Source: an uncultured Oscillospiraceae bacterium (GTDB lineage: Bacteria > Bacillota > Clostridia > Oscillospirales > Acutalibacteraceae). From it: a stretch of DNA of 47,268 bases. The stretch's first letter is position 1, and each line of letters begins with the position of its first letter. The position numbers and the translations under genes were made by a program. Below, one piece after another: positions 990 to 24,286 of this stretch. The stretch covers positions 1 to 47,268 of the forward strand of contig URYX01000001.1 in the NCBI GenBank assembly GCA_900552225.1, read 5' to 3'. The notes beneath the pieces are model-generated. The model made no database searches. It saw only the letters and a list, made by a program, of their open reading frames with translations, and had not been told where the DNA came from.

Positions 990-1958
990 TTGAAACAGGT
1001 TTTCCGTAAGGTGGGGCTCCTGGCCCTGACCGTAACGCTGACGGCGTCCGCACTGCTGTCCGGAGCTGCAGCGGCCTCGGCGGCCGCGTTTGATCTCAGT
1101 CAGTACGAGGTGACGACATATAAGGCCCCGAGCTACAAGGCGAAGGACACCATGCAGGGCATCGGCACCGTCTGGCAGTATGAGTATTCCGAGGGCGAGC
1201 ACAGCCTCGACTTCAAGCCGACGACCAAGGTGCTCGGACTCTATGTTTCCCATAAGGACGAGGAGATGGAGGGTGGCAAGGGGCAGGCCGCCGGTCTGTT
1301 CAGCTACTGGGGCACCGATATCTACCTGGCACCCGGCTATCTGGCGGCGGGCAATGTACCGCTCAACGCGGTGCAGGTGTTCGTGGTGCCGGAGGACGGC
1401 TATGCCACCGTCAACTCCTGCGACATCATCCGCCACTATGGCAACGCGGACGACAACACGATGGACTGCGAGGTCGCGGTGTATCTCAACGACCGGAAGA
1501 TTTGGCCCGAGGGCGATGCCTGGGCCGCCGTCAATCCGCAGCTGACCCCGCCGAACACGCTGACCATGCCGCAGTTCGGCGACCTGGAGGTCCAAAAGGG
1601 CGATAAGATCCGCTTTGTGCTCGGGCCCGGGAACATGCAGTATGTTTCGTGGGATGACCCGGTCAAATGGTATGTGACGGTGGATCTGTACACGAAGAAG
1701 GCGGAGACCGATCCGCCGACGACCACAACCGAGGAGCCGACGACTACGACGGCCTCCGTCACCTCGACCACCGGAAAGGGCAGCACAACCGCCTCCGTCA
1801 CCAAAACGACCGGCAGCACCGCTTCTACGGCGGCGGCCGACGGCGAGGCCGAGTCCTCCCCCGTATGGCCCTGGATTGTCGGCGGTGTGGTGATCCTTGC
1901 GGCAGCGGGAGCCGCAGCAGCGGTAATCCTGATCCGTAAGAAGAAGGCAAAGACCTAA
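990..1958 (+). CDS. Secreted surface protein, paralog of the preceding gene: signal peptide, same unknown domain, Thr-rich linker, C-terminal TM anchor
   Basis: TTG start 7 nt after AGGAGG. Signal peptide MKQVFRKVGLLALTVTLTASALLSGAAAASAAA. Shares motif blocks with 1..849. Linker TDPPTTTTEEPTTTTASVTSTTGKGSTTASVTKTTGSTAS. Tail WPWIVGGVVILAAAGAAAAVILIRKKKAKT. Confidence 0.75.
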   Translation: MKQVFRKVGLLALTVTLTASALLSGAAAASAAAFDLSQYEVTTYKAPSYKAKDTMQGIGTVWQYEYSEGEHSLDFKPTTKVLGLYVSHKDEEMEGGKGQAAGLFSYWGTDIYLAPGYLAAGNVPLNAVQVFVVPEDGYATVNSCDIIRHYGNADDNTMDCEVAVYLNDRKIWPEGDAWAAVNPQLTPPNTLTMPQFGDLEVQKGDKIRFVLGPGNMQYVSWDDPVKWYVTVDLYTKKAETDPPTTTTEEPTTTTASVTSTTGKGSTTASVTKTTGSTASTAAADGEAESSPVWPWIVGGVVILAAAGAAAAVILIRKKKAKT

Positions 1959-1995
1959 ACCGCCCGGGATACCCCGGAGCGTTGGGACACAATCC

Positions 1996-2024
1996 CCTCC
2001 CCGCCGCCCGGTGCGGCGGGGAGG
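1996..2024 (+). other. Perfect 12-bp GC hairpin (CCTCCCCGCCGC / GCGGCGGGGAGG, 5-nt loop) just upstream of the SBP ribosome-binding site; no U-tract
   Basis: Inverted repeat read from the sequence. It lies 9 nt before the GGGAAGGG RBS of the 2046 gene. Confidence 0.4.
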
Positions 2025-2045
2025 AACGGCAGGGAAGGGCATGGC

Positions 2046-4895
2046 GTGATGATGAAACGGAAAATAATCGCAGGATTCCTCAGTGTGACTCTGACGCTGT
2101 GCCTGGCGGCGGGGCCGGCGGCCGCGCTGTCGGCGGAGGACCAGCCCTGCTCCGCGCCGCTGGAGAGCGGCAGCACGGCGGACTTCGCCTATACGGCCTA
2201 CCGGCAGCAATACGCACAGGCGGGATTCCCGCAGCGCGAGATTGCGGTGCCGCTGACGCAGGCGGAGGGCGGTGAGGCGACCCGCGTCCGGACGGACGGC
2301 GGGGAGGAGCGGGACGGCTGGCTGACACGGGAGGAGGAAACCGTGACCTGGCCGTTCACCGTGGCGGAGACTGGCTGGTACCGCCTGCAGATCTGCTACT
2401 TTACGGGCGGCGGCAGCGCCGTCATGGAGCGCGGGCTCCGCATTGACGGAGAGCAGCCGTTCAGTGAGGCGGAGGGCCTGTCCTTTTTCCGTATGTGGCA
2501 GGACGTGCCGGTCACCGACACCGTCGGGGACCATCGGTTCGCCGTGGACCGGCAGGGCAATGAGCGCCTGCCGGAGCAGACCGTGGCGGCGGACTGGAGC
2601 ACGGTGTGGGTGCGCGAAAGCAGCGGCATGGTGACCGAGCCGCTGTGCTTTTACCTGACGGCGGGCGAGCACACTCTGTCGCTCACCGCACTGCGGGAGG
2701 ATATGGTCATCGGAGCGATGACTTTCGGCCAGCCGGAGGAGCTTCCCTCCTATGAGGCCTACCGGCAGGCCCACGCGGCCGCGGCCGAGGTGCCGTCGTT
2801 TAGCTTCGTGCGGCAGGGCGAGGATTACCTGCGCAAATCGCATCAGGAAATCGTGCCGATCAATGACCGCACCTCGGCGGCCACGCAGCCGGCCTCCGCG
2901 TCGATTCTGTATCTGAATACGGTCGGCGGCTCGGGCTGGAGCGTAAACGGCATGTGGATCGAATGGGAGATCACGGTGCCGGAGGACGGACTGTACCGTC
3001 TGGCACTCCGCTACCGTCAGAATTTTTTGAGCGGCATGACCGCGAACCGGCGGCTGCGGCTGGACGGAGAGGTGCCGTTTGCCGAGGCGGAAACGCTGGA
3101 ATTTCCCTATCATAACGGATGGAAAAACAAGGTGCTCGGCGGAGAGGACGGCGACTGGCTGCTCTATCTGACCGCGGGCACCACCCACATACTGCGCCTG
3201 GAGTGCACGCTCGGAGCCTCGGCCCCGCTGCTGCAGACGGCGCAGGAGCTGGCCTCCTCCCTCAATACGGTGTACCGCCGGATGGTCATGTACATGGGCA
3301 GCGCGCCGGATACCAACCGCGACTACAAGGTGGAGGAGATTCTGCCGGAGGAGATGGCGGTGCTGGCGCGGAGCCGCGATCGGCTGACAGCCCTTTCGGA
3401 GGAGCTGATTGCCCTGTCCGGCGGCCGCGGCGATGCCAATGTGGCCATCGATAACCTCTGTGACGTATTGCAAAAAATGGTGAAGGATCCGCGGGACGTT
3501 CCGTCTCTGCTGACCACCTTCCGTGACTATATCGCCTCGCTGAGCACCTGGATTCAGACCCAGAGCAAGCAGGCACTCGAGATTGACTGGCTGGCGCTGC
3601 TCGGGCATGACGATGCGCCGCCGGAGGAATCGGCGGGCTTTTTCCGCAGCCTCTCCTTCGGCTTCCGGTCGTTCCTGTCCTCCTTCGTGACGGATTATTC
3701 CATGATGCTCGGGGAGGAGTCGGATGAGACCATCGAGGTGTGGATTGCCTCGGGACGCGATCAGGCGCAGATTCTGAAGGAGCTGGTGATGAACCGCTTC
3801 AGCACGGAATACGGCATCGGCGTCAACCTGAAGCTCGTCAGCGGACAGCTGCTGCTCGCCACCATGGCGGGCGAGGGCCCGGACGTGGCGCTCGGCCAGA
3901 GCTCCGCCGACGTGATGAATTTTGCCCTGCGGCATGCCCTGCAGAGCATAGAGCAGTATGATGGCTTTGAGACGCTGCGGCAGGAGTTCTCCGACGAGGC
4001 GTTTGTGCCGCTCTCGTGGGGAGAGCAGGTATACGCCCTGCCCGAGCAGCAGACCTATCCGCTGCTGTTTTACCGCTCGGATGTATTGAACGAGCTCGGG
4101 CTGCCGCTGCCCTCCTCCTGGCAGGAGCTGTACACGGTCATCGGTGAGCTGCAGAAGAATAACCTGCAGTTCGGCTATCCGACCGGGCTCTACGGCTACG
4201 CGACGATGCTCTATCAGCAGGGCGAGCAGCTGTACGAGCCGGACGGCGCACAGAGCCGTCTCAGCGGCCGCACGGCGGTGGAGACCTTCAAGGAGTGGGT
4301 ACGGCTGTATACGAACTACGGGATTCCGGTGGAATACGACGCCTCCAACCGGTTTCGCTCCGGCGAGATGCCGCTGCTGATTGCCGATTATACGCTGTAT
4401 AACACGCTGTCGGTATTCGCACCGGAAATCCGCGGTCAGTGGGGCTTTATGGTGCTTCCCGGCGTGCAGGAGGCCGAGCGCGTGAACCGCTCCTCCGCCT
4501 CGGCGGTGACGGGCTGCGTGATGATCGGCCAGAGCGGGCATAAGGAGGCCGCGTGGACGTTCATGAAGTGGTGGGCCTCGGCCGATACGCAGGCGCGCTA
4601 CGGCAGCCGCCTGGAGGCGGTGCTCGGCACGTCCGCGCGCTATGCCGCCGCCAACAACACCGCCCTGCGGCAGCTCTCCTGGACCGCCTCGGAGCTGCGG
4701 GTGCTGGAGACCCAGCGGTCGTGGGTGCACGGAATCCCGGAGGTGCCCGGCTCCTATTACACCTCCCGCCATCTGGACAACGCCTTCCGGCGTGTCGTCA
4801 ACTACGGCGAGGACGAGCGCAAAACACTGATCGAGTACGCTCAGGTGATCGACGAGGAAATTCGCTATAAACGGCGGGAGCTGAGGCTCTCATAA
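2046..4895 (+). CDS. Giant (949 aa) extracellular solute-binding protein: signal peptide, two CBM6/35-like beta-sandwich repeats, helical linker, family-1 (CUT1-type) sugar SBP domain
   Basis: N-terminus MMMKRKIIAGFLSVTLTLCLAAGPAAALSA. The start could be GTG 2046 or ATG 2049/2052. Two internal repeats: VTWPFTVAETGWYRLQICY...LRIDGEQPFSEAEGLSF...FYLTAGEHTLSL and IEWEITVPEDGLYRLALRY...LRLDGEVPFAEAETLEF...LYLTAGTTHILRL. The C-terminal ~400 aa have an SBP-like pattern (IEVWIASGRDQAQILKELV..., FMKWWASADTQARYG). Followed by two permease genes. Confidence 0.85.
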   Translation: MMMKRKIIAGFLSVTLTLCLAAGPAAALSAEDQPCSAPLESGSTADFAYTAYRQQYAQAGFPQREIAVPLTQAEGGEATRVRTDGGEERDGWLTREEETVTWPFTVAETGWYRLQICYFTGGGSAVMERGLRIDGEQPFSEAEGLSFFRMWQDVPVTDTVGDHRFAVDRQGNERLPEQTVAADWSTVWVRESSGMVTEPLCFYLTAGEHTLSLTALREDMVIGAMTFGQPEELPSYEAYRQAHAAAAEVPSFSFVRQGEDYLRKSHQEIVPINDRTSAATQPASASILYLNTVGGSGWSVNGMWIEWEITVPEDGLYRLALRYRQNFLSGMTANRRLRLDGEVPFAEAETLEFPYHNGWKNKVLGGEDGDWLLYLTAGTTHILRLECTLGASAPLLQTAQELASSLNTVYRRMVMYMGSAPDTNRDYKVEEILPEEMAVLARSRDRLTALSEELIALSGGRGDANVAIDNLCDVLQKMVKDPRDVPSLLTTFRDYIASLSTWIQTQSKQALEIDWLALLGHDDAPPEESAGFFRSLSFGFRSFLSSFVTDYSMMLGEESDETIEVWIASGRDQAQILKELVMNRFSTEYGIGVNLKLVSGQLLLATMAGEGPDVALGQSSADVMNFALRHALQSIEQYDGFETLRQEFSDEAFVPLSWGEQVYALPEQQTYPLLFYRSDVLNELGLPLPSSWQELYTVIGELQKNNLQFGYPTGLYGYATMLYQQGEQLYEPDGAQSRLSGRTAVETFKEWVRLYTNYGIPVEYDASNRFRSGEMPLLIADYTLYNTLSVFAPEIRGQWGFMVLPGVQEAERVNRSSASAVTGCVMIGQSGHKEAAWTFMKWWASADTQARYGSRLEAVLGTSARYAAANNTALRQLSWTASELRVLETQRSWVHGIPEVPGSYYTSRHLDNAFRRVVNYGEDERKTLIEYAQVIDEEIRYKRRELRLS

Positions 4896-4913
4896 GGAAA
4901 GGGGTGACCGGCC

Positions 4914-5810
4914 ATGTGGTCTTATTTGCGAGGGTATCTCAAGACCCACGGGATTTATTACCTGTTTATACTTCCCTTCCTGGTTCTGTTCTGTATTTTT
5001 ACGGTAGCTCCTGTGCTGACTTCGATTTTTTACAGCTTTACCTACTATAACATTCTGGAGGCCCCGCAGTTTCTGTGGGCGGATAACTACGTGCGCCTGT
5101 TTACGCAGGATACGGTGTTCCTGACGGCCATCAAGAATACTCTGCTGATTGCGCTGGTGACGGGGCCGGTGAGCTACCTGCTCTGCTTCTTCCTGGCGTG
5201 GATGATCAACGACCTGAAGCCGCGGATGCGGGCGGTGCTGACGCTCTGCTTCTACGCCCCCTCCATCACGAGCTCAGTGTACGTGGTGTGGACCTACGTC
5301 TTCAGCGGCGACCGCTACGGCCTGCTGAACAGCGTGCTGCTGCGGCTGAACCTCATCGACACCCCGATTCTGTATCTGAAGAATCCGGATTACATGATGA
5401 TGGTGGTCATCATCGTGTCGCTGTGGATGAGCATCGGCACCAGCTTCCTGGCGTTCGTGGCCGGCTTTCAGGGCCTCGATAAGACGCTGTACGAGGCGGG
5501 CGCCGTGGAGGGTGTCAAAAACCGGTGGCAGGAGCTGTGGTATATCACGCTGCCGATGATGCGGCCTCAGCTGATGTTCGGTGCCGTGATGCAGATCAGC
5601 GCCGCCTTCTCGGTCGGCGCGGTGGCGGATGCCCTGGTGGGCTTCCCCAGCGTGGATTACGCCACGCATACGGTGATGAATCACCTGATCGACTACGGCA
5701 ATATCCGGTTTGAGCTCGGCTATGCCTCGGCCATTGCCACGGTGCTGTTTTTCATGACGGTCGGCACCAACGAGGTCATCAACAAGCTGCTCAGCAAAGT
5801 GGGAAAGTGA
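4914..5810 (+). CDS. Sugar ABC transporter permease (MalF/CUT1-type)
   Basis: Six hydrophobic segments. EAA loop EAGAVEGVKNRWQELWYITLPMMRPQL. RBS AAGGAAAGGGG upstream. Confidence 0.9.
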   Translation: MWSYLRGYLKTHGIYYLFILPFLVLFCIFTVAPVLTSIFYSFTYYNILEAPQFLWADNYVRLFTQDTVFLTAIKNTLLIALVTGPVSYLLCFFLAWMINDLKPRMRAVLTLCFYAPSITSSVYVVWTYVFSGDRYGLLNSVLLRLNLIDTPILYLKNPDYMMMVVIIVSLWMSIGTSFLAFVAGFQGLDKTLYEAGAVEGVKNRWQELWYITLPMMRPQLMFGAVMQISAAFSVGAVADALVGFPSVDYATHTVMNHLIDYGNIRFELGYASAIATVLFFMTVGTNEVINKLLSKVGK

Positions 5811-5831
5811 ACGGAAAACGGAGGGATCCAG

Positions 5832-6737
5832 GTGAAAAAGGATAAAGCAACCGCCTCTGTGCGGCGGCCGGGACGACGGCTGCTGCATCATTTCCGGGTG
5901 GGACACGGCAACCGTTCGCTCGGCGGCAATCTGTGCATGGGCCTGTTTCTGCTGCTGATGGCGGTGTTTATGGTGTTTCCGCTGGTTTATACCGTCTGCA
6001 ACGCCTTCAAGCCGCTGAGCGAGCTGTTTCTGTTTCCGCCGCGCTTCTTCGTGCGCAACCCGACGCTGCAGAATTTCATCGATCTCGGCAATCTGGTGTC
6101 CTCCTCCTGGGTGCCGTTTTCACGCTACCTGTTCAACACGGTATTTATCGCGGCGGCCGGCACGGCGGGACACGTGTTTGTATCGGCCCACGCGGCCTAT
6201 GCGCTGGCCAACAATAAGTTTGCCGGCTCGCGCTTTATCTTCAAGGTGATCGTGCTGTCGCTGATGTTTTCGTCGGCGGTGACCGCGGTGCCGAGCTACC
6301 TGATCCTGGCGGACTTCGGCTGGATCGACAGCTACGCGGCCGTGATCGTGCCGGCCTTCAGCAGCAGCCTCGGCGTCTACCTGCTCAAGCAGTTTATGGA
6401 GGGAGTTCACCCGGCTCTGCTCGAATCGGCCCGCATGGACGGTGCCGGCGAGTTCCGGGTGCTGTGGAGGATCGTGATGCCGATCGTGCGGCCGGCCTGG
6501 CTGACGCTGATCATTCTGATGGTGCAGAACCTGTGGAACAGCAACAGCGGCTATATCTTTTCGGAGCAGCTCAAGACCCTGACCGGAGCGCTCAATCAGA
6601 TCGTGGCCGGCGGCATTGCCCGCGCCGGAACGGCCGGCGCCGCTTCTCTGTTTATGATGATTGTGCCGATTACGGTATTTGTGGTAACGCAGTCCAACGT
6701 CATCGAGACGATGGGTACCTCCGGCATGAAGGATTGA
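5832..6737 (+). CDS. Carbohydrate ABC transporter permease (MalG/CUT1-type)
   Basis: EAA loop ESARMDGAGEFRVLWRIVMPIVRPAW. GTG start after GGAGGGA. Hydrophobic profile. Confidence 0.9.
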   Translation: MKKDKATASVRRPGRRLLHHFRVGHGNRSLGGNLCMGLFLLLMAVFMVFPLVYTVCNAFKPLSELFLFPPRFFVRNPTLQNFIDLGNLVSSSWVPFSRYLFNTVFIAAAGTAGHVFVSAHAAYALANNKFAGSRFIFKVIVLSLMFSSAVTAVPSYLILADFGWIDSYAAVIVPAFSSSLGVYLLKQFMEGVHPALLESARMDGAGEFRVLWRIVMPIVRPAWLTLIILMVQNLWNSNSGYIFSEQLKTLTGALNQIVAGGIARAGTAGAASLFMMIVPITVFVVTQSNVIETMGTSGMKD

Positions 6738-6780
6738 GAACGCACCGTAGGATACGGCAGCGAGGGAAAGGACGGTCGGC

Positions 6781-8262
6781 GTGAAACGATACAGAGGAAT
6801 AGCCGCGGTGCTGTCGGCACTGGTGCTTTGTGTGACCGGCGCGGTGGGAGCCCGGGCGGTGGCCTACGACAGCTATATCTATGAAAAGGAAACGGGAAAG
6901 GCCCTGCGTGCGCCGACGGCCATGGTCCCGGAGCTCTGCCTCAACGGCAATACCTATGCCATGTCACTGTTCCGCAACCCGGAGGACGCGGCGGTGGACG
7001 GCGAGGGCCGGGTGTATATTCTGGATTCCGGCAACAGCCGGGTGGTGTGCCTGTCGCCGGAGCTGGAGCTCCTGTGGACGCTGACCCGCCCGGAGGGGAA
7101 CGGGAGCTTTACCGATGCCCGGGGCCTGTTTGTGGGCAACGGTATGCTGTATATCGCGGACACGGGGCATGCCCGGGTGCTGCAGTACCCGCTGCCGCAG
7201 TCGCAGGAGGAGGCGGACGCGGCGCTGCCGCTCATCCTGGCTCCGAAAAATCTCCTGGTGGAGAACGACACGGGCTTTAAGCCGACCAAGCTGGTGGCGG
7301 ACAGTCAGGGCCGCCTGTTCATCGTGACCGAGGGCGTGTACGAGGGACTGGTGGAGCTGGCCTCCGACGGAGAATTCCTGGCCTATGTCGGTGCCAACCG
7401 CGTCAAAATGTCGCTGCTTGATCAGATCTGGCGGCTGTTTTCCACCGAAGCCCAGTGGCGGGCCAGCGAAAAATTTGTGCCGGTGGAGTTCAGCAACGTC
7501 TGCATGGACAGTGAGGGCTTTATCTTCACCACCTCGCGCGGCACCTCGGGAGACGAGATGCCGATCCGCCGCCTGAACCTGAGCGGCAGCGACGTGCTGA
7601 AGAACGCGGAGGACGAGGTCAGGCTCGGAGATGCCGATCTGCCGTCCCAGGCGGCTGCCACCTATTTCGGAGACGTGGCGGCGGGCCCCTACGGAATGTT
7701 CGCCGGGCTCGACCGGACCCGCGGACGCGTCTTTGTGTATAACGCGGATGTGCGGCTGCTGTTTGAATTCGGCGGCTCGGGCAGCCAGAACGGCACCTTC
7801 CAGAATCCGGTGGCGCTGCTGTGGCTGCAGGACGGACGGATGGCGGTGCTCGACCGCCTGACGGGCAACCTGACCGTGTTCCGCCCGACCGCCTACGGGG
7901 AGCTGGTGCTGTCCACCGCCTACTACGAGGACATCGGAGACTATACGGCCTCGGCCGAGGCCTATACGCGCATCCTGACCATGAACGCCAACAGCGAGAT
8001 TGCCTATGTCGGCGTGGGAGAGCAGTATTACCGCCAGGGAAACTACAAGGAGGCCATGCGCTGCTATCAGCTCGGCAACGACACCAAGTCCTATTCCAAG
8101 GCCTTTGTCAAGGAGCGGCAGAAAACGCTGAGCGTGGTCATTCCGTTCGTAATCGGTGCGCTGCTGCTGGCGGCCCTCGCCGCCATCGTGTCGGCGGTGG
8201 TGAAAAAGGTGCGGGAGCTGCGCGAGAGCGTGCGGAAGATCCGGAATATGCAGAAGCGGTGA
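6781..8262 (+). CDS. Extracytoplasmic NHL-repeat (beta-propeller) plus TPR protein with signal peptide and C-terminal TM anchor
   Basis: Signal peptide MKRYRGIAAVLSALVLCVTGAVGARA. NHL-like repeats (GRVYILDSGNSRVVCL, GMLYIADTGHARVLQY, GRLFIVTEGVYEGLVEL, RVFVYNADVRLLFEFG, GRMAVLDRLTGNLTVF). TPR-like YTRILTMNANSEIAYVGVGEQYYRQGNYKEAMRCYQL. TM helix LSVVIPFVIGALLLAALAAIVSAVV followed by a basic tail. Confidence 0.75.
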   Translation: MKRYRGIAAVLSALVLCVTGAVGARAVAYDSYIYEKETGKALRAPTAMVPELCLNGNTYAMSLFRNPEDAAVDGEGRVYILDSGNSRVVCLSPELELLWTLTRPEGNGSFTDARGLFVGNGMLYIADTGHARVLQYPLPQSQEEADAALPLILAPKNLLVENDTGFKPTKLVADSQGRLFIVTEGVYEGLVELASDGEFLAYVGANRVKMSLLDQIWRLFSTEAQWRASEKFVPVEFSNVCMDSEGFIFTTSRGTSGDEMPIRRLNLSGSDVLKNAEDEVRLGDADLPSQAAATYFGDVAAGPYGMFAGLDRTRGRVFVYNADVRLLFEFGGSGSQNGTFQNPVALLWLQDGRMAVLDRLTGNLTVFRPTAYGELVLSTAYYEDIGDYTASAEAYTRILTMNANSEIAYVGVGEQYYRQGNYKEAMRCYQLGNDTKSYSKAFVKERQKTLSVVIPFVIGALLLAALAAIVSAVVKKVRELRESVRKIRNMQKR

Positions 8263-8281
8263 GGGAAGGAGACGGTGTACG

Positions 8282-8905
8282 ATGGGATACGGAAAAGAAC
8301 TGAAATATTCCCTGTATACGGTGTTCCATCCGTTCAAAGGGTTTTGGGAAATCAAATATGAGGGGCGGGGCAGCCTGCGGGCCTCTATGACCTTTTTGGC
8401 GCTGTGCGTGCTGTCGCAGATTCTGCGCGGACAGCTGACCGGGTATATGTTCAACGAATATTACCCGGAGAGCGTGAATGCACTGCTCGTAACGGCCCAG
8501 GTGCTGGCACTGTTTTTCCTGTGGTGCCTGGCCAACTGGTGCCTGACCACGCTGCTGGAGGGGGAGGGCAGCCTGCACCATATCATGGTGGCGGTGGGCT
8601 ACTGCCTGCCTCCCGTGATTCTGGCCAACGTGGTCAACTGTATTTTAAGCAACCTGATTTCGCAGGACGAGGAGGCCTTCCTGCACTACATCGACGGAAT
8701 GGCGCTGCTGTGGTTCGGCTTTCTGCTGCTGGCGGCGACCGTGGTGGTGCAGCAGTATTCGCTGATGAAAACCGTCGGCACCTCGATCCTGACCGTGTGC
8801 GTCATGCTGATTTTTGTCTTTATCGGAATTCTGTGCGTGAGCCTGGTGCAGCAGGTGGTGTCCTTTGTCAACTCCGTGTACAGCGAGATTGTGTACCGTG
8901 TTTGA
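8282..8905 (+). CDS. Yip1-family polytopic membrane protein
   Basis: N-terminus HPFKGFWEIKYEGRGSLRASMTFLALCVLSQIL is typical of bacterial YIP1-domain proteins. About 5 TM segments. RBS GGAAGGAGA. Confidence 0.7.
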   Translation: MGYGKELKYSLYTVFHPFKGFWEIKYEGRGSLRASMTFLALCVLSQILRGQLTGYMFNEYYPESVNALLVTAQVLALFFLWCLANWCLTTLLEGEGSLHHIMVAVGYCLPPVILANVVNCILSNLISQDEEAFLHYIDGMALLWFGFLLLAATVVVQQYSLMKTVGTSILTVCVMLIFVFIGILCVSLVQQVVSFVNSVYSEIVYRV

Positions 8906-8926
8906 GCGGCGGCAGGAGGAATCAAC

Positions 8927-11620
8927 GTGAACAAGCAGTACTTAAGACCGTGCCGTATCGCGGCGTTGCTGTGCGCGGCCGCTCTGACGGCCGCGATGCT
9001 GTCGTCGGCGGAGTCGTCGGAGACCGCGGAGAGGCAGCCGTCGGGGCAGACCGGCTCGGCCGGCAGCCTGTCGTCGGAGGTAACGGAGCTGACCTCCGGG
9101 GAGCGCTTCCGCCGGGATTTTTATACGTCGGACAGCCGCCTGATCCCGCCGGAGGGAATGACGGCCGGCGTCGGAACGGACATTCCCGAGGGGATGGAGC
9201 GGGGGGCCGCGAGGGGCGGCCTGGAGCTGTATTTTTCGGAGGAGACGACCGAATTTGCCGTGCGCGACACCGCGTCCGGCAAGGTGTGGCTGTCGGCTCC
9301 GTCCGATCGGTCGCTGGACCTGGTGGCGGTCGGTGATGCACAAAAGAGACTGTCGGCGCTGCTCTGGCTGGATTTTTACAATGCCAAGGGCGCACTGCAG
9401 ACCTTCGATTCCTATAACCAATCGGTTGCGTTCGGCAGCTTCACGACCGAACGGCTGCCGGACGGCGTCGGCATTCACTACCGGATCGGCAAGCCGAAGA
9501 CGGTGACCAGCGCCGATGTGCCGAACATCATTTTTGCGGATCGGTTTGAGAGCTTTTTGGCGCGGATGACCCCGTCCCAGGCGGACGACACCTCCAGCCG
9601 CTACCGGAAATACTCGCTGTCCTCGGCCCGTACCGAGGAGGCCCGGCAGAAGATTCTGAACCAGTATCCCACGGCGGCGCAGGGCGACATCTACGTGCTG
9701 CGCAACCCCGAGGATCCGCTGCTCTCCATGATCGCGGACAATCTGCGCGCGGCCGGATATACGGACGAGGACCTGGCGCAGGATCACGCGGCGCACGGCA
9801 TCGAGGCGGTGTCGGAGCCGGCGGAGATGTTCGAGGTGACCCTGCACCTGCGGCTGCAAAACGGGAGGCTGTCGGCCGAAATTCCCGGCGACTCCATCCG
9901 GAGCCCGGAGGGATCGCCGCTGTACCGCCTGCATGTGCTGCCCTGCTTCGGAGCGGCCAACCTGAGCTCGCGCGGCTATATGCTGGTGCCGGACGGCGCC
10001 GGCGGACTGGTTTATCTCAACAGCTTTTCCTCGACCAACGAGGCGCTGCAGCTTCCCGTCTACGGGGCGGACGAGGTGCTGCGCCGGACGGAGGCGGGGG
10101 CCCGGACGGAGGCGGTCTGCCTGCCGGTGTTCGGCATGAAAAACGAGGACGCCGGCTTTGCGGCCTCCATCGACGCGGGCGAGGCTGCGGCCACGGTAAA
10201 CTGCGCCATTCCGGGACTGCAGAATTCCTATAACTGCGTGTGGGCCTCATTCCTGCTGAACCCGCGCGATTCGTTCAGCTCGGTCGGCAACGGCGTCGTC
10301 ACCACGATGTACCCGTCGCAGCTCTGGGCGGGCGACCTGGCAGTATCCTTCGATTTTCTCGGCGCGGAGGAGGCCGACGTGGCCGGCATGGCCCGCTCCT
10401 GCCGCCGCTGGCTGCAGGAACGGGGACTGCTGACCTCGACGCGCCTGACGGATACGCATCAGACCTTCTTGCTGGAGACGGTCGGCATGGCGGACCGCGA
10501 TGCCTCCTTCCTCGGCCTGATCCCGTATAAAAAGAAGCTGACGCTGACCACCTTCGAGGAGACGGAGACCATCCTGCGCACCCTGCGGGAGCAGGGCGTG
10601 GAGTCGATCGCACTGCAGCTTTCGGGCTGGATGAAGGGCGGCCTCCGCCATACCTCGGATTCCCGCAAGCCCGAGAGCGGATTGGGCGGGACCAAGGGCC
10701 TGTCCTCCCTGCTGGAGACGGCGCATGCGGAGCAGATCTCCGTGTTCGGCAGCATGGGAATCCAGGAGGTCAGCAGCCCGTCGCTGTTCTATCCCAAGAA
10801 GTCGCGGCTGGTGCGGCGGCTCGGTGACGTGTACGCACACCGCGCCCGGTTCGATTACGCCAGCGGGCTGGCGCTCGGCAATGAGGATACCCCCTATCTG
10901 CTGACGCCGTCCCTGCTGCCCGACGAGGCCGCTGCGGCGGCGGAGGCGCTCATGCAGCTGGGCTTCGACGGTGCGGCGGTGCCCGATCTCGGCCAAAGCC
11001 TCTATTCGGACTATCACGAGAGTCATTTTGTGCGGCGGGACGAGAGCCAGCAGTACACGCGGCAGGCGCTGGAGGCGCTGTCCGCGGGCGGCGGGGCACT
11101 GGTGGACACGGGCTATGCCTATGCGCTGTCCTCGGCGGCCATGCTGACCAATCTGCCGCTCGGGGGAAGCGGATATTCCCGCGTCAACGAGGAAGTGCCG
11201 TTTTATCCGATGGTGATTCACGGCTACCTGCGCTACGCGGGCACGGAGCTGAACCACAGCGACGACGCACAGTCGTATGCGCTGCGCTGCGTGGCCTACG
11301 GCGCCATGGTGCATTACACCTGGTCCTACCGCGACTCGTCGCAGATCAAATTCAGCAACTACAGCGATTATTATGCGCTGTGCTGGCAGGATACGCTGGA
11401 GCAGGCCGTCACGCTGTACCGGCACATCGACGGCACGACGGCGCATCTTGCCTCACAGGAGATCACCGGATACCGCAGCCTGAACGACCAGGTGACGGTG
11501 ACGGAGTACGCGGACGGCACCGCGGTATATGTCAATGCGGGCCGTAACCCGGTGACGGTGGACGGCATTGCCGTTCCGGCGATGGACTTTGTGGTGACGG
11601 AAGGGGGAACGGCACGGTGA
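8927..11620 (+). CDS. Large secreted protein of unknown function, DUF5696-like (family name from memory)
   Basis: GTG start 7 nt after AGGAGG. Signal peptide MNKQYLRPCRIAALLCAAALTAAMLSSAES. 897 aa with blocks such as YMLVPDGAGGLVYLN, LPVFGMKNEDAGFAA and IALQLSGWMKGGLRH. The coding call is firm; the family name is moderate. Confidence 0.7.
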   Translation: MNKQYLRPCRIAALLCAAALTAAMLSSAESSETAERQPSGQTGSAGSLSSEVTELTSGERFRRDFYTSDSRLIPPEGMTAGVGTDIPEGMERGAARGGLELYFSEETTEFAVRDTASGKVWLSAPSDRSLDLVAVGDAQKRLSALLWLDFYNAKGALQTFDSYNQSVAFGSFTTERLPDGVGIHYRIGKPKTVTSADVPNIIFADRFESFLARMTPSQADDTSSRYRKYSLSSARTEEARQKILNQYPTAAQGDIYVLRNPEDPLLSMIADNLRAAGYTDEDLAQDHAAHGIEAVSEPAEMFEVTLHLRLQNGRLSAEIPGDSIRSPEGSPLYRLHVLPCFGAANLSSRGYMLVPDGAGGLVYLNSFSSTNEALQLPVYGADEVLRRTEAGARTEAVCLPVFGMKNEDAGFAASIDAGEAAATVNCAIPGLQNSYNCVWASFLLNPRDSFSSVGNGVVTTMYPSQLWAGDLAVSFDFLGAEEADVAGMARSCRRWLQERGLLTSTRLTDTHQTFLLETVGMADRDASFLGLIPYKKKLTLTTFEETETILRTLREQGVESIALQLSGWMKGGLRHTSDSRKPESGLGGTKGLSSLLETAHAEQISVFGSMGIQEVSSPSLFYPKKSRLVRRLGDVYAHRARFDYASGLALGNEDTPYLLTPSLLPDEAAAAAEALMQLGFDGAAVPDLGQSLYSDYHESHFVRRDESQQYTRQALEALSAGGGALVDTGYAYALSSAAMLTNLPLGGSGYSRVNEEVPFYPMVIHGYLRYAGTELNHSDDAQSYALRCVAYGAMVHYTWSYRDSSQIKFSNYSDYYALCWQDTLEQAVTLYRHIDGTTAHLASQEITGYRSLNDQVTVTEYADGTAVYVNAGRNPVTVDGIAVPAMDFVVTEGGTAR

Positions 11621-12582
11621 AACCGGTAAAATTACTCAAGGCACGGCGGCTGCCGATGAAGCAGAAGCGCTATCTCTACGGCCTGATCTTTACCCTTCCG
11701 GCCATCATCGGCCTCGTTTGGCTGTTTCTGATTCCGCTGTTCTCCTCCCTCCGCATGAGCTTTTCCTCCGTCACCTTCGATACGCAGGCCGGGAGAGCGG
11801 TCAACGTGTTCGTGGGCACCAAAAACTATGTGACGGCGCTGCTGGAGGATGCCAATTTCAATAAATACCTGGTGGGAGCGCTGAAGAAAACGGCGGTCGA
11901 GGTGCCGATCATCGTCCTGTTCAGCTTCTTTGCGGCCACGCTGATCCATGAGAAATTTCCCGGCCGCGGGGTGGCGCGCTTTTTCTTCTTTCTGCCGCTC
12001 GTGCTGGCCTCGGCCACGGTCATGACGATGGACTCGACCGACCTGTTCCAGAACTCCATGGCCAACGCGGATTTTAAATCGATCGACGGGGCGGGAGGCT
12101 TCCTGCAGGGCATCGAGCTCGCCCGGCTTTTGGAATTCACCGGACTGCCGGAATCCCTGTGTGACCTGATTCTGAACGGTGTCAACAGCGTGTTCAAGGT
12201 CATCAGCCTCTCGGGAGTGCAGATCATCGTGCTGCTTGCGGCTCTGCAGTCGGTGTCCCCGTCTCTGTATGAGATGGCGAGGGTGGAGGGGGCCTCCTCG
12301 TGGGAGATTTTCTGGAAAATCACCTTTGTGCTGATTTCCCCGATGCTGCTGCTGTGCGCCATCTACTCGGTGGTGGATTCCTTCACCGCCTATGACAACC
12401 GGGTCATCCTGGAGGTCTCGGAGCAGATGTACGGCAAGGGCAACTACGGCCTGGCCTCGGCCATGTCGTGGATCTACTTTGTGGTGGTGACCGTCATCCT
12501 GCTGATTGTGGCGGGTGTCGGCTCCAGGCTCGTGTTCTACTACGATAACTTACGGGCGGAGAGAAAGGAGGAAGCGGTATGA
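11617..12582 (+). CDS. Sugar ABC transporter permease (MalF/CUT1-type), second system
   Basis: EAA loop EMARVEGASSWEIFWKITFVLISPML. The GTG at 11617 overlaps the upstream stop (GTGA). An alternative ATG at 11656 (MKQKRYLYGLIF) is possible. Confidence 0.88.
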   Translation: MKPVKLLKARRLPMKQKRYLYGLIFTLPAIIGLVWLFLIPLFSSLRMSFSSVTFDTQAGRAVNVFVGTKNYVTALLEDANFNKYLVGALKKTAVEVPIIVLFSFFAATLIHEKFPGRGVARFFFFLPLVLASATVMTMDSTDLFQNSMANADFKSIDGAGGFLQGIELARLLEFTGLPESLCDLILNGVNSVFKVISLSGVQIIVLLAALQSVSPSLYEMARVEGASSWEIFWKITFVLISPMLLLCAIYSVVDSFTAYDNRVILEVSEQMYGKGNYGLASAMSWIYFVVVTVILLIVAGVGSRLVFYYDNLRAERKEEAV

Positions 12583-13553
12583 CAAGACAGCGCGTATCCC
12601 TGCTCCGTTCGGGAGCGGGACGGCAGCGGCTCGAGAACAAAAGCCGGAGGATTGCGTGGCACGTGGTGCGCTATCTGCTGGTGTTCGGCATCTCCTTCAT
12701 CATCATCTACCCGATGCTGGTCAAGCTGTCGGTTTCGCTGATGACGGAGGCCGACCTGATGGACCCCACCGTCAAATGGGTGCCGCGTCACGTAACGTGG
12801 GACAATTACGCCAAGGTAATCGAGGCGCTGCATATCCAGAGCTCGCTGCTTAATTCGCTGCTTTATACGGTGGGCATCACGGCGCTGCAGCTGCTGAGCT
12901 GCACCATGGTGGCCTACGGGCTGGCCCGCTACGCCTACCCCGGCAGCAGGCTCGTGTTCCTGCTGATGATTTTCACACTGGTGATCCCGCCGCAGACCTA
13001 TATGTCGGGCCTGTACGTGCAGTTCCGGTTTTGGGATCCGTTCGGGCTGGTGACGGCCCTGACGGGGAGCACAGGGGTGACGAATACCTTTGTCCCCTTC
13101 ATCCTGCAGGCGGTGCTGTGCCAGGGCCTGCGCAACGGACTGTATGTGTTCCTGATGCGGCAGTATTTCCGGAATCTGCCGGGTGAGCTGGAGGAGGCGG
13201 CCAACGTGGACGGGGCCGGGGTGATGAAGGTGTTTTTCCGGATCATCCTGCCGAACTCCGTCCCGATCCTGGTGACCGTCAGCGTGCTCTCGGTGGTGTG
13301 GCAGTGGAACGACAGCTATAACAACGCCATGCTGGCAAGTCAGATGGACTTTCTGGCCACCAACGTCGGCAACATCGGCACCCTGCTGCGGGAGGGACAT
13401 CAGTCCGCGGACCATCTGGCCGGCAACTCGGCCCTGCTGTCCGCCTGCAAGAACGCCGCGGCCATGCTGATGAGTCTGCCGATCGTGATTTTCTTCGCAC
13501 TGGTGCAGAAGAGCTTTTCGGAAAACCTGGCGCGAACCGGTATTGTAGGCTGA
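12579..13553 (+). CDS. Carbohydrate ABC transporter permease (MalG/CUT1-type), second system
   Basis: ATGA start/stop overlap with the upstream permease. EAA loop EAANVDGAGVMKVFFRIILPNSVPIL. Confidence 0.9.
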   Translation: MTRQRVSLLRSGAGRQRLENKSRRIAWHVVRYLLVFGISFIIIYPMLVKLSVSLMTEADLMDPTVKWVPRHVTWDNYAKVIEALHIQSSLLNSLLYTVGITALQLLSCTMVAYGLARYAYPGSRLVFLLMIFTLVIPPQTYMSGLYVQFRFWDPFGLVTALTGSTGVTNTFVPFILQAVLCQGLRNGLYVFLMRQYFRNLPGELEEAANVDGAGVMKVFFRIILPNSVPILVTVSVLSVVWQWNDSYNNAMLASQMDFLATNVGNIGTLLREGHQSADHLAGNSALLSACKNAAAMLMSLPIVIFFALVQKSFSENLARTGIVG

Positions 13554-13610
13554 CGGCGAAGATAGGAAGCCGTTGCAAATATAAGTCAAGATAAAGAGAG
13601 GTAATGAAAC

Positions 13611-15032
13611 ATGACAAAGTGGATGGCAAGGCTTTTGGCGCTGACGCTGGCGTTTGCGCTGCTGATGACGGGCTGCTCCGATACACCGGCGGCCTCGGGT
13701 ACCTCCGATGGCAGCAGGACCGGCTCCGGCAGCACACCGGACGGCAGCAGTCCGTCGGGCGAGACGATGGACCTGGGCGGCATGGAGATCGTGTTTACGT
13801 CCATGGGCCCCGGCTATTTCGATGTGGACGAGAGCTCCGATATCTACGACGAAATGCAGGATTTTATCGCGGAGGTGGAGACGCGCTTCCACTGCAAGCT
13901 GCGCTTTGACCACTACGGCCCGTGGGACGTCTATTTCCAGAAGCTGCAGGACATGACCATGAACGGTGACTTCTTCGGAGATATCGTGGCATTTGATGCC
14001 TACATCTATCCCTCCACGCTCCTCAACGGCATCTTCGTGCCGATTGACGAGTATATCAACGTGAAGGATTATGACCTGTGGGAGCAGGGCTGCGAGGACT
14101 TCTTCACCATCAAGAACCGCATCTATGCGGTCAGTGCACATTCGGAGACGCTTGTCCCGCTGTACTTCTGCCTCTATAACAAGACCCTGTTTGAGGAAAA
14201 GGGCCTCAGCGCTAAATATGACCTGAAATCGATGGCCATGAACCGCGAGTGGACGTGGGATAAATTCCGCGAGGTCATGCGTGCCTCCACGCTCGATACC
14301 AACGGCGACGGTGTGACGGATATCTGGGGCCTCAGCGCCCAGGGCTATCAGTTTGCGACGCTGCCGAATGCGCTGTCCATCGCCAACGACGCGATGGCCA
14401 CCCGCAAAAACGGGGACAGCGTCAAGGTGACCATGAACGAGGCCCCCTATCTGGAGACGCTGGAATTCGTCAATAAGCTGACCTGGGAGGATAAGGCGGT
14501 GTCCACGGACGATAAGTGGCGTGCCTATGACTCCTTCAACAAATTCGCGCTCGGAGAGAGCATGTTCTGGATCGGCACCAACTGGTGGGTCTCCACGCTG
14601 CAGACGATGGTGGACGACACGGTGTTCAGCGTGCTGCCGGTGCCGATCGGCCCGAACGCAGGCGGCGAATACATCGTGCGCGATAAGGGCAATGTGCACA
14701 CCTTCGGTATGCTGTCCACCTGTGAGCACAAGAAGGAGGCGGGCGCGGTCTTTGAGTATTTCATGAAGAACCGTCCGACCGACGGCAAGTCGGTGCGCGC
14801 CTCCTGGAGCGATATGGTGTTTGATACCGATTCGCTCGACGTGATCGAGATGCTGTCGAAGCTCCCGCACAGCTTTGCGTGGACGGATGCCAACACGACG
14901 AGCTTCAGTGAGGTCATGCTCGGAGAGCACGGCATCCCGGACCGTATCCCGCCCGCCACCTTTGTGGCTACGGTGCAGGACCGTCTGCAGGCCGACCTCG
15001 ACCAGCTGTGGAGCCTGGCGGATTTTGACTGA
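13611..15032 (+). CDS. ABC sugar-binding lipoprotein (family-1 SBP)
   Basis: Canonical lipobox MTKWMARLLALTLAFALLMTGCSD, followed by a Ser/Gly/Thr linker and an SBP-like fold pattern. Confidence 0.9.
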   Translation: MTKWMARLLALTLAFALLMTGCSDTPAASGTSDGSRTGSGSTPDGSSPSGETMDLGGMEIVFTSMGPGYFDVDESSDIYDEMQDFIAEVETRFHCKLRFDHYGPWDVYFQKLQDMTMNGDFFGDIVAFDAYIYPSTLLNGIFVPIDEYINVKDYDLWEQGCEDFFTIKNRIYAVSAHSETLVPLYFCLYNKTLFEEKGLSAKYDLKSMAMNREWTWDKFREVMRASTLDTNGDGVTDIWGLSAQGYQFATLPNALSIANDAMATRKNGDSVKVTMNEAPYLETLEFVNKLTWEDKAVSTDDKWRAYDSFNKFALGESMFWIGTNWWVSTLQTMVDDTVFSVLPVPIGPNAGGEYIVRDKGNVHTFGMLSTCEHKKEAGAVFEYFMKNRPTDGKSVRASWSDMVFDTDSLDVIEMLSKLPHSFAWTDANTTSFSEVMLGEHGIPDRIPPATFVATVQDRLQADLDQLWSLADFD

Positions 15033-24208: not shown

Positions 24209-24286
24209 ACCGAAACACTCCTTCGTGAAAAAACGCACCTTTTCCGAAGAACAGTATACCACAAATGCGGGCATCCGTAAAGTGCT

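Follow-up and report, generated by a model that had tools for sequence, protein, structure and literature searches.

A conserved cassette of two CUT1-type sugar ABC importers enclosing NHL/TPR, Yip1 and DUF5696 genes in an uncultured Oscillospiraceae bacterium

The window, that is, the whole analyzed stretch of 47,268 nucleotides, contained a block of nine + strand ORFs in the order S1-a1-b1-N-Y-D-a2-b2-S2, and all nine lay at the positions and with the spacing reported in an earlier note on this DNA (all genes described below are likewise on the + strand). The intergenic gaps were successively 18, 21, 43, 19 and 21 nt, followed by two 4-nt overlaps (D/a2 and a2/b2) and a gap of 57 nt between b2 and S2, and a GGAGG/AGGGAAGG-type ribosome-binding site was found upstream of each start codon. 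The block had been described as a nine-gene operon; the tight run is real, but it does not end at 15032, since four more co-directional genes follow (15088–17190, 17239–19140, 19162–21270 and 21281–22216), with gaps of 55, 48, 21 and 10 nt downstream of S2. A sequence scan revealed no strong terminator-like hairpin inside the block and identified no promoter upstream of S1; because of the latter, the transcription unit, which probably extends to about 22.2 kb, was delimited by gene spacing only.

The S1 gene (2046–4895) encodes a giant exported solute-binding protein of 949 aa, in which an N-terminal signal or anchor precedes a tandem pair of CBM35-like beta-sandwich modules; a helical bundle comes next, and then a CUT1-type binding domain (Pfam SBP_bac_1, aa 574–850, E-value = 8e-19). 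The protein contains an internal repeat (35% identity, E-value = 2e-10), and the ortholog profile of its N-terminal region matched the CBM35 of CITase (5x7g, E-value = 5.6e-5), with further CBM35/CBM6 matches being weaker. The median length of the S1 orthologs was 986 aa, and the N-terminal hydrophobic segment was present in all of them (73 of 73). The second solute-binding protein, S2 (13611–15032; SBP_bac_1, E-value = 8e-15), is a lipoprotein with the lipobox LMTGC, which was kept in 64 of 67 orthologs. All four permeases of the block carried an EAA motif: EAGAVEGV at aa 194 in the UgpA/MalF-like a1 (4914–5810; BPD_transp_1, E-value = 8e-10), ESARMDGA at aa 198 in the UgpE/MalG-like b1 (5832–6737; BPD_transp_1, E-value = 1e-6; UgpE-like, E-value = 4e-23), EMARVEGA at aa 219 in the divergent a2 (11617–12582) and EAANVDGA at aa 206 in the UgpE/MalG-like b2 (12579–13553; BPD_transp_1, E-value = 2e-10). 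The match of a2 to UgpA was weak, and its BPD_transp_1 score was below the Pfam threshold (16.1 vs. 26.4 bits). The two importers had been called complete, which does not hold, since the domain search detected no gene for an ABC ATPase, either in the block or among the window ORFs scanned; their energization is therefore assumed from general knowledge of CUT1 systems.

The CUT1 family (TC 3.A.1.1) of oligosaccharide importers includes MalEFG, UgpAEB-type systems and MsmEFG with the shared ATPase MsmK/MsmX. The block resembles these importers in its binding proteins of the SBP_bac_1 type, which include a lipoprotein, in its paired BPD_transp_1 permeases with EAA motifs, in the lack of an ATPase gene in the operon and in the adjoining glycoside hydrolases and AraC/LacI regulator. 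It differs from them in its doubled set of permease pairs and binding proteins, which keep a fixed order, in a binding protein of about 950–1000 aa with two CBM35-like modules, in a sub-threshold a2, and in the N, Y and D genes embedded between the pairs.

The N gene (6781–8262) encodes a protein with a signal peptide, a six-bladed NHL beta-propeller, a short TPR region and a C-terminal transmembrane helix followed by a basic cytoplasmic tail; this helix was present in 56 of 59 unfused N orthologs. Y (8282–8905) is a Yip1-family polytopic membrane protein of 207 aa (PF04893, E-value = 4.6e-14, 53.1 bits vs. cutoff 28.6), and D (8927–11620) is an exported DUF5696 protein of 897 aa (PF18952, E-value = 6e-155, 517.6 bits). 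Thus, of the earlier domain calls, NHL (42.2 bits vs. cutoff 20), Yip1 and DUF5696 exceeded their Pfam cutoffs, whereas TPR remained sub-threshold. The placement of the trio outside or in the membrane was borne out by export or membrane signals of N, Y and D both in the window and across orthologs.

Downstream of S2, the first gene (15088–17190; Pfam Beta_helix, Laminin_G_3 and Glyco_hydro_28), conserved in loci L081 and L002, encodes a surface lipoprotein with a GH28-like beta-helix and, as read from its N-terminus, the lipobox LSLSAC; its product is probably an extracellular pectin/RG depolymerase. It is followed by genes for a cytoplasmic GH28-like/Laminin_G_3 protein without a signal peptide (17239–19140; domain search), a GH78 alpha-L-rhamnosidase with four Bac_rhamnosid domains (19162–21270), an AraC-family regulator (21281–22216; HTH_18, HTH_AraC and AraC_binding) and a GH28 (22272–23549; Glyco_hydro_28, E-value = 2e-16), both glycosidases also lacking signal peptides. 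The GH28-like, GH78 and GH28 genes fit the earlier guess of pectin/RG-I, and the substrate in the window is likely to be a rhamnose- and galacturonate-containing pectic glycan of the RG-I type, as suggested by these neighboring genes alone.

Comparison with other genomes revealed that the order S1-a1-b1-N-Y-D-a2-b2(-S2) was nearly unchanged in about 78 of 80 independent related loci from Paenibacillaceae, Clostridia, Lachnospiraceae, Oscillospiraceae and one spirochaete MAG. In the remaining loci, S2 was recovered by profile; the S2 gene closes the Clostridia-type cassettes (3′ end) and opens those of Paenibacillaceae (5′ end). The recurrence of Yip1 and DUF5696 genes beside sugar ABC permeases, which had been noted earlier for annotated Firmicutes genomes, proved far stronger than suggested and takes the form of a fixed nine-gene cassette, of which the block is one copy. 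The cassette is widespread in Gram-positive bacteria, combining two sugar ABC importers with N, Y and D, and is undescribed; no mention of it or of DUF5696 was found among the searched papers. All components co-evolved, the pairwise-distance correlations among eight of them being r = 0.91–0.98 (66 loci). The fastest divergence was observed for D and S2 (identity 0.43 and 0.39, respectively) and the slowest for a1/b1 (0.69); fast divergence of D is as expected if it contacts the substrate. Divergent D proteins (23–25% identity) remain inside the cassette. The flanking enzymes varied with the genome, pointing to mannan (GH26/GH113), pectin/rhamnose (GH28/GH78, as in the window), arabinan or cellulose; GH26 was found in 31 ORFs, and GH113, GH5, GH38, GH9, GH10, GH2, GH78, GH43/51, PL22 and GH106 also occurred.

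These data are interpreted, with slightly more confidence than doubt, as a modular glycan-import cassette in which two CUT1-type importers are combined with an N-Y membrane scaffold and with a GH129-fold ectoprotein, D, made together with a2b2. S1 would serve a1b1 and S2 would serve a2b2, with a division of labor between the two importers, and the trio is probably part of the uptake machine. In the window, polysaccharide would be nicked by surface enzymes such as the GH28-like lipoprotein, after which long or branched fragments would be captured by S1 through its two CBM35-like modules and binding domain, and another product class would be bound by S2. N-Y would stand beside the permeases as a non-catalytic subunit for assembly or positioning, as YknW does for YknXYZ, and D, held at a2b2, would bind the incoming chain and perhaps trim it in some lineages. 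The energy for import through both permease pairs would come from an ATPase of the MsmX/MsmK type whose gene lies elsewhere, and degradation would be finished by the cytoplasmic GH28-like, GH78 and GH28 enzymes under AraC control.

The AF2 model of D (pLDDT 86.9, pTM 0.83) has a GH129-like fold of three domains, a TIM barrel between two beta-sandwiches, with an N-terminal extension; the fold is similar over the full length to GH129, GH101, GH31 and GH36 (Foldseek; ZgGH129, E-value = 2.5e-28; NagBb, E-value = 9e-27), and hhalign against the GH129 family gave a probability of 99.2% (E-value = 1.4e-18). By profile comparison and predicted structure, DUF5696 is thus a distant homolog of GH129 glycosidases, and the match to a characterized enzyme family considered in the earlier note amounts to remote homology and not to membership. 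D shares its three-domain architecture and TIM-barrel fold with the alpha-N-acetylgalactosaminidase NagBb, the 3,6-anhydro-D-galactosidase ZgGH129/DagB and the related GH101, and differs from GH129 in carrying an additional region, which includes a helical insert, at its N-terminus and in being exported and locked into an ABC-importer cassette. One alternative, rather unlikely although the strongest of those considered, takes D for a normal glycoside hydrolase, secreted or surface-bound, that would belong to a new family related to GH129, trim side chains or termini of glycans extracellularly and be kept in the operon as an enzyme and not as a transporter subunit, with N-Y being a separate accessory. 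Besides fold and homology, this is favored by D687 of the window protein, which aligns with the nucleophile D435 of NagBb and is an Asp or Glu in 87 of 120 DUF5696 members, by the SBP-like divergence rate of D, consistent with changing specificity, and by the fact that the Pfam DUF5696 model also matches NagBb-like fragments. ZgGH129 likewise lacks the NagBb acid/base and is nevertheless an enzyme, using other acids (PMC5698469). Given D687 and this precedent, D may have a catalytic role in many cassettes.

However, the GH129 catalytic dyad is incomplete in D. The window protein retains D687 and D695, but G729/Y730 replace E478/E479 (the acid/base Glu478 being Gly or Asn in D), other residues occupy the positions of H320 and D322, which are among those mutated in the NagBb quadruple mutant, and six family-invariant residues have been lost. 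No acid was found at the nucleophile position in 33 of 120 members (27%), including close relatives of the window D from the same cassette, and in a short-form subfamily five polar residues of the active-site region have disappeared jointly, although the cassette is retained. Chemically unrelated substrates accompany the cassette, and the stop codon of D and the start codon of a2 overlap in the window (gap ≤0 in 65 of 77 loci; median −4), which is unusual for a free enzyme and suggests that a2 is probably translationally coupled to D. The processing function proposed earlier is at most possible: remote GH129 homology is compatible with it, but it is weakened by the absent acid/base, by a nucleophile dispensable across the family and by the six residues lost in the window copy; D is probably non-catalytic. 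A similar arrangement, offered here as a hypothetical analogy, is that of 4F2hc/SLC3A2 and rBAT, the heavy chains of heteromeric amino-acid transporters, which are glycosidase-fold ectodomain partners of transporters in which catalysis is lost or unneeded, although these belong to a different transporter class and domain of life, and no homology of D to them was established (PDB sequence matches with E-values of about 0.2–0.4, not significant).

As to N-Y, the two proteins formed a single fused protein in 14 of 78 loci, with a full Yip1 domain (E-values of 1e-59 to 1e-94), in four further contigs (L082, L083, L085 and L087, the last retaining N-Y, D, a2 and b2 only) and, among 55 homologs from databases, in about 20. 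The joined N + Y chain was modeled by AF2 with pLDDT 88.6 and pTM 0.77, although the pTM of a covalent chain is no proof of a native interface. In N-Y, the NHL propeller/TPR ectodomain, which has a single membrane pass, may dock on the Yip1 helical bundle. Five-helix Yip1-family proteins encoded with ABC transporters are known as accessory subunits: YknW of Bacillus subtilis YknWXYZ, which modulates transporter assembly (PMC4887032), and BawG of a bacteriocin exporter (PMC10707071). Those systems are exporters of the MacB type and include a membrane-fusion protein, whereas the cassette has type I importer permeases, and its Yip1 protein either pairs with an NHL/TPR ectodomain or is fused to one. 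The N propeller resembled domains with binding or sensing roles (TRIM71, Brat, PknD) and not enzymes in both sequence and fold (PDB matches to the PknD sensor propeller, the TRIM71 NHL and a consensus TPR; Foldseek matches to NHL domains, E-value = 4.5e-16), and N is accordingly taken to be non-catalytic. The likeness to M. tuberculosis PknD, a kinase with an extracellular six-bladed NHL propeller on a single-pass anchor, together with the AraC, LacI or GntR regulators that usually flank the cassette and the description of YknW as an assembly modulator that does not itself transport, could indicate that N-Y, perhaps together with D, acts as a sensory or regulatory device that perceives extracellular glycan and gates or stabilizes the transporters or signals to a regulator, and not a structural part of the importer. 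This is improbable, since N and Y lack any output domain, such as a kinase or an HTH, their cytoplasmic parts are very short, and N-Y stays constant, always between the two permease pairs and not beside the regulator, whose type changes. N also differs from PknD in the TPR that follows its propeller and in its pairing with or fusion to Yip1.

Gram-positive polysaccharide utilization loci commonly mix transporters with surface proteins, and the two importers could be independent of each other and the three surface proteins unrelated, sharing only regulation and a glycan, but this is very improbable given the invariant internal order across Bacillota classes and a spirochaete and a co-evolution, N-Y fusion and D/a2 overlap much tighter than in ordinary loci, which shuffle enzymes as the cassette's own flanks do. 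Genes that act in one pathway and nothing more would also be expected to show tight order and to co-evolve. With respect to the surface glycan complex coupled to the importers that was proposed earlier, a physical link within the trio is backed by the recurrent natural fusions and the conserved D/a2 overlap, while N-Y–permease and D–a2b2 complexes are suggested by gene arrangement. The modular import cassette may represent a substrate-generic platform for glycan uptake.

The nine plus-strand ORFs lying between 2046 and 15032 had exactly the coordinates proposed in the earlier note and encoded, in order, a solute-binding protein (S1), a permease pair (a1 and b1), an NHL/TPR protein (N, 6781–8262), a Yip1 protein (Y, 8282–8905), a DUF5696 protein (D, 8927–11620), a second permease pair (a2 and b2), and a second solute-binding protein (S2). 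The successive genes were separated by 18, 21, 43, 19, and 21 nt, followed by two 4-nt overlaps and a gap of 57 nt, and a strong Shine–Dalgarno sequence was present in front of all nine ORFs. The domain assignments of that note were borne out by Pfam for SBP_bac_1, NHL, Yip1, DUF5696, and, in genes 2, 3, and 8, BPD_transp_1; the BPD_transp_1 match of gene 7 and the TPR match of gene 4 were below the threshold.

Conservation of this arrangement was assessed using a DUF5696 profile scan of bacterial collections with one genome per species, which yielded 398 stretches with relatives; in the best 80 of these 398, the gene neighbourhoods were examined by comparing the nine window proteins with all six-frame ORFs. 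As had been anticipated for Yip1 and DUF5696, genes of these two families were located beside sugar permeases; together with NHL/TPR genes they stood in a conserved order, and S1-a1-b1-N-Y-D-a2-b2 was found in essentially every one of these best 80 loci not ended by a contig edge. The position of the S2 gene depended on the host: the 3′ end in Clostridia-type loci, the window among them, and the 5′ end in Paenibacillaceae. In the few loci apparently without S2, a profile recovered divergent S2 sequences; the proposal that D acts there as a surrogate binding protein for a2b2 was rejected, since this recovery succeeded in nearly all such loci. The hosts of the cassette included Paenibacillus, Cohnella, Gorillibacterium, Lederbergia, Caldicoprobacter, Mahella, Oscillospiraceae, Lachnospiraceae, and a Spirochaetaceae MAG, the closest genomes being an uncultured Eubacteriales MAG (64%) and Ca. 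Avimonas merdigallinarum (45%). Across 66 complete loci, eight components had pairwise-distance matrices that correlated with one another at r = 0.91–0.98; therefore, the cassette has been inherited and duplicated as a unit. D proteins of only 23–25% identity were still found inside it, and the profile delimited a DUF5696 family of 7102 clusters at 50% identity (E ≤ 1e-3), or 4110 at E ≤ 1e-30.

Paralogous cassettes, two or more in a single species, were observed in Paenibacillus urinalis (L030 and L072) and P. thermotolerans (L022 and L084), and one of the species with paralogous cassettes had N and Y fused in one copy and unfused in another; this is consistent with duplication of the whole cassette and specialisation for different glycans. 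Two atypical loci were also noted. In locus L086 (Logan ERR2144967 contig, 1334–9635), an 864-aa S1 and a single permease preceded a Yip1 protein of 152 aa that lacked an NHL partner; D (606 aa), a solute-binding protein, and another single permease followed. This locus is either a decaying cassette or a frameshifted assembly. Locus L087 (GCA_025563055.1 contig, 1090–14134) contained GH78, a fused N–Y (709 aa), D (1016 aa), a2, b2, and GH106, with no adjacent S1, a1, or b1. Since only N–Y, D, a2, and b2 are kept in L087, this locus suggests that the N, Y, and D trio together with a2b2 forms the core, or minimal unit, of the cassette, and its GH78 and GH106 rhamnosidases, one on either side, suggest a renewed connection with rhamnose-containing glycans. 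Of 77 loci, 65 had the stop codon of D overlapping or abutting the a2 start, the median D–a2 gap being −4 nt; this conserved overlap and the half-cassette of L087 moderately suggest that D associates with a2b2.

The importer components were recognisable by sequence. SBP_bac_1 was matched by genes 1 and 9 at 69.2 and 56.1 bits (cutoff 26), as expected of CUT1 binding proteins, the domain of gene 1 being its C-terminal 40%, and a lipobox was present in S2. The permeases a1, b1, and b2 exceeded the Pfam cutoff for BPD_transp_1 and a2 fell under it (16.1 vs. 26.4 bits); the EAA coupling motif of CUT1 permeases was found in all four, a2 included. S1 carried two homologous modules 5′ of the binding domain (35% identity, E 2e-10); with a profile of its orthologs, CBM35 of CITase was matched at E 5.6e-5, together with weaker CBM35/CBM6 matches, followed by a helical bundle, and this N-terminal extension was kept in the orthologs, whose median length was 986 aa. 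Export signals were found in all extracytoplasmic components, across orthologs. NCBIfam added nothing for genes 5, 6, and 9. The earlier description of two complete importers did not hold, as no ABC_tran match, and hence no ATPase of the MalK/MsmX type, was found in the block or among the remaining window ORFs that were scanned. CUT1 importers usually draw on a shared ATPase whose gene lies elsewhere, so that the lack of a local one is compatible with membership in this family.

The presence of an NHL propeller in N was confirmed both by Pfam (42.2 bits, cutoff 20) and by the AF2 model, which consisted of six four-stranded blades. The propeller had a Foldseek TM of ~0.75 to the NHL domains of TRIM71, Thin, Brat, and PknD, and the best sequence and fold matches were the ligand- or partner-binding NHL domains of TRIM71, Thin, and Brat and the extracellular sensor domain of PknD. 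The invariant residues of N occurred once per blade, in the manner of structural repeat positions. Some records label N as a gluconolactonase (SGL), but an enzymatic role was not supported, given that in structure it most resembles binding-type NHL domains and that its conserved Asp and Arg residues recur once per blade. Every Pfam TPR model remained under the cutoff (best 21.6 vs. 27 bits); amino acids 377–432 matched consensus TPR proteins in phmmer and helical hairpins were modelled at 371–431, so N would have at most about two TPR-like repeats, followed by a TM helix.

Y matched Yip1 (PF04893) at 53.1 bits against a cutoff of 28.6 and over model positions 3–171 of 173, that is, as a member of the family. 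In 14 of 78 loci, where the Yip1 gene seemed to be missing because it was fused to N, a full Yip1 domain (E 1e-59 to 1e-94) was present at the C-terminus of an N protein of 655–774 aa; this fusion was also annotated in L082, L083, L085, and L087, as well as among database homologs (about 20 of 55). The N and Y genes overlapped in 56 of 64 loci. At the C-terminus of N, the TM helix is followed by a basic tail; Y begins with a soluble segment (aa 1–30) leading directly into its first TM helix, so that the predicted topologies of the two proteins would fit each other. When the window N and Y were concatenated into one chain, which was aligned to the natural fusion proteins, AF2 gave a confident model of it (pLDDT 88.6, pTM 0.77). 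The fusions strongly suggest that N and Y associate.

Yip1-family proteins are known in Bacillota as accessory subunits of ABC transporters: YknW modulates the assembly of the YknXYZ transporter (PMC4887032), and in bacteriocin clusters Yip1 genes accompany ABC exporters (PMC10707071). However, systems of the YknWXYZ type combine a MacB-type permease, an ABC ATPase, and a membrane-fusion protein, whereas the cassette has BPD_transp_1 importer permeases and solute-binding proteins. A MacB-type permease (MacB_PCD and FtsX) and an HlyD-like membrane-fusion protein were encoded elsewhere in the window (24287–26397, minus strand), not adjacent to the cassette; no ABC ATPase gene was found beside this pair, the neighbouring ORF (23627–24274) encoding a YfbR-like HD phosphohydrolase.

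D was matched by the DUF5696 model (PF18952) over positions 2–612 of 612 (E 6e-155; 517.6 bits vs. 25.6). Its AF2 model (pLDDT 86.9, pTM 0.83) had an N-terminal beta-sandwich, a (beta/alpha)8 barrel, and a C-terminal beta-sandwich, as in GH129, and was similar to both characterised GH129 enzymes, ZgGH129 and NagBb, over the whole length of these enzymes (Foldseek E 2.5e-28 and 9e-27, respectively; target-normalised TM 0.68–0.72), with GH101, GH31, and GH36 ranking after them. A sequence-profile connection with GH129 was obtained at E 2e-6 to 6e-6, and hhalign of the D family (120 sequences) against the GH129 family gave 99.2% probability (E 1.4e-18, 549 columns). For the latter comparison, full-length NagBb-like genes from metagenome contigs were used, as the homolog search seeded with the NagBb fragment returned short fragments only, which served to show the sequence context of D435. 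NagBb-like GH129 fragments (P0044–P0051) had precomputed Pfam matches to both Glyco_hydro_101 (PF12905) and DUF5696; therefore, the Pfam DUF5696 model already overlaps a characterised CAZy family.

The register of the nucleophile was unreliable for the NagBb fragment with HMMER local alignment, hmmalign, and MAFFT --addfragments and was settled by hhalign with full-length GH129. The catalytic nucleophile, NagBb D435 (ZgGH129 D486), aligned with window D687. Of the 120 D-family sequences, 81 have Asp there, 6 have Glu, and 33 have a non-acidic residue, with the local alignment ungapped; the non-acidic set included P0004–P0007 and P0011 from the window's own clade. NagBb E478, which we take to be the acid/base, and E479 aligned with G729 and Y730 of D (family consensus G and N). 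NagBb H320 and D322 of the LHLDGW motif, presumably metal ligands and different in the 5wzq quadruple mutant of NagBb, aligned with Q564 and S566; in the D family, R is the consensus at the first of these positions, and the second is variable. In short D forms of ~700 aa, D687, D695, N730, D754, and E755 were lost together and the cassette was kept. Judging from these alignments, D is a remote homolog of GH129 and not a member of it. The earlier note had held that a match of D to an already characterised enzyme family, together with dispensability of Yip1 and NHL/TPR, would count against a surface complex coupled to the importers; such a match was found as remote homology and does not extend to membership. 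GH129-type catalysis, as far as the sequences indicate, cannot be a universal requirement of the cassette. Of the two catalytic residues of NagBb, Asp435 alone is conserved in ZgGH129 homologs (PMC5698469), and the majority of D proteins, which bear D687, may be catalytically active, since ZgGH129 itself uses acids different from those of NagBb (PMC5698469).

The residues invariant across the D family were Y351, D/E356, Y379, E416, N436, W568, R704, Y770, N776, E790, H849, N870, and Y871; many of them lie within the N-terminal beta-sandwich, and they are candidates for a conserved partner interface. D also has a conserved YMLVP[DE]GSG face. It should be noted that the window D is an outlier, with Y485V, Y492C, N730Y, E790A, H849Y, and Y871A, at positions where 80–98% of the 120 members, including the 60%-identical P0002 and P0003, have the consensus residue, and additionally with D609S, common to the window D, P0002, P0003, and P0008. 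These substitutions are not sequencing errors, because the independent assembly P0001 has the same residues, and they suggest that constraint on D may have been relaxed or shifted in the window lineage.

In two Pfam censuses of 163 flanking ORFs, GH26 was found in 31, along with GH113, GH5, GH2 beta-mannosidase, GH38, GH9, GH10, GH78, and CBM35 and with LacI, AraC, and GntR regulators. Single loci were flanked by GH26/GH113, GH43/GH51, GH2/GH43/BNR, PL22, or, in L087, GH78/GH106, and GH28-like, GH78, and AraC genes were common to the window and its relatives L081 and L002. The enzymes beside the cassette thus differ between genomes, which makes it a substrate-generic platform. The mean identities of D and S2 were 0.43 and 0.39, respectively, versus 0.69 for a1/b1; as the fastest-evolving parts, these two would fit a role in contacting the substrate.

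In the window, contrary to what had been supposed, the nine genes probably do not make up the whole transcription unit, which is predicted to run from about 2.0 to 22.2 kb: the co-directional, closely packed run continues 3′ of 15032 on the plus strand with a lipoprotein containing Laminin_G_3 and a GH28-like beta-helix (15088–17190), a GH28-like protein without a signal (17239–19140), GH78 (19162–21270), AraC (21281–22216), and GH28 (22272–23549). No strong terminator-like hairpin was found within 2046–15032, the best of the region being located upstream at 887–915. A GC-rich hairpin, CCCCGCCGC-CCGGT-GCGGCGGGG, was noted at 1991–2019 (plus strand) between the upstream gene and S1, immediately 5′ of the S1 ribosome-binding site; it has no U-tract and may serve as a weak terminator, as a site of processing, or in regulation. 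The promoter scan upstream of S1 revealed no convincing sigma-70-like promoter (6 matches vs. 4.7 expected by chance), and the Rfam scan of the block revealed no regulatory RNA. Two starts were ambiguous: ATG 2049 or 2052 is possible for S1 instead of GTG 2046, and N starts at 6808 in public gene calls (484 aa), whereas the GTG at 6781 has a ribosome-binding site and yields a proper signal peptide, with KRYR in the n-region.

Upstream of the cassette, the ORFs 163–849 and 990–1958 (plus strand) encoded paralogous proteins (E 1e-34) without a Pfam match, which had in common a W-x-YEY region, a C-terminal TM helix, and a KKKAK tail; a signal peptide was found in the 990–1958 product and none, from the first ATG, in that of 163–849. 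In L002 (Ca. Avimonas), a homolog of this pair preceded the cassette, and none was found in the other loci compared; L081 has two genes without a Pfam match at the corresponding place. These products may be clade-specific surface glycan-binding proteins. A further GH28 of 270 aa, covering the central part of the model only, was located far from the main locus at the 3′ end (46414–47226, minus strand), and the rest of the window was housekeeping (Lgt, FolD, DegV, Ddl, a Mur ligase, cyclophilin, ProRS, AcnX, tRNA-Gly, and tRNA-Leu).

Taken together, there is good support for a function in import, for an exported location of the parts, and for co-function at the cassette level; we infer a scaffold role of N–Y, a binding role of D, and the substrate. 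Oligosaccharide import in a Gram-positive utilisation locus is already known, and the fixed dual-importer architecture with the Yip1/NHL/GH129-like trio is a new form of it: no paper on DUF5696, none on this cassette, and none linking Yip1 or NHL proteins with sugar ABC importers was found in the literature searched, GH129 papers included. A bolder reading, which we regard as rather unlikely, is an ABC importer supercomplex of an unrecognised kind, in which D and N–Y, a Yip1-anchored NHL propeller, would be stoichiometric subunits of the a2b2 translocator, and D, in many cases devoid of catalysis, would pass long glycan chains to the importer or thread them into it. If this were true, D would correspond, in bacteria, to the glycosidase-like heavy chains that heteromeric transporters have in eukaryotes, and a first nutrient-import role would be assigned to Yip1 proteins.

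A large orphan family, DUF5696, is here tied to a fixed set of partners and to the GH129 fold, and bacterial Yip1 proteins gain a second transporter context. The conserved core of N–Y, D, a2, and b2 is now defined and is genetically testable in cultivable Paenibacillus on mannan. Automated CAZyme callers of the dbCAN style may label D as GH129, a mucin-degradation marker, and thereby inflate mucin-degradation gene counts. If the trio consists of transporter subunits, the annotation of N, Y, and D, currently labelled "gluconolactonase", "YIP1 family protein", and "DUF5696", would be affected, and models of glycan uptake in Gram-positive gut and soil bacteria would change.
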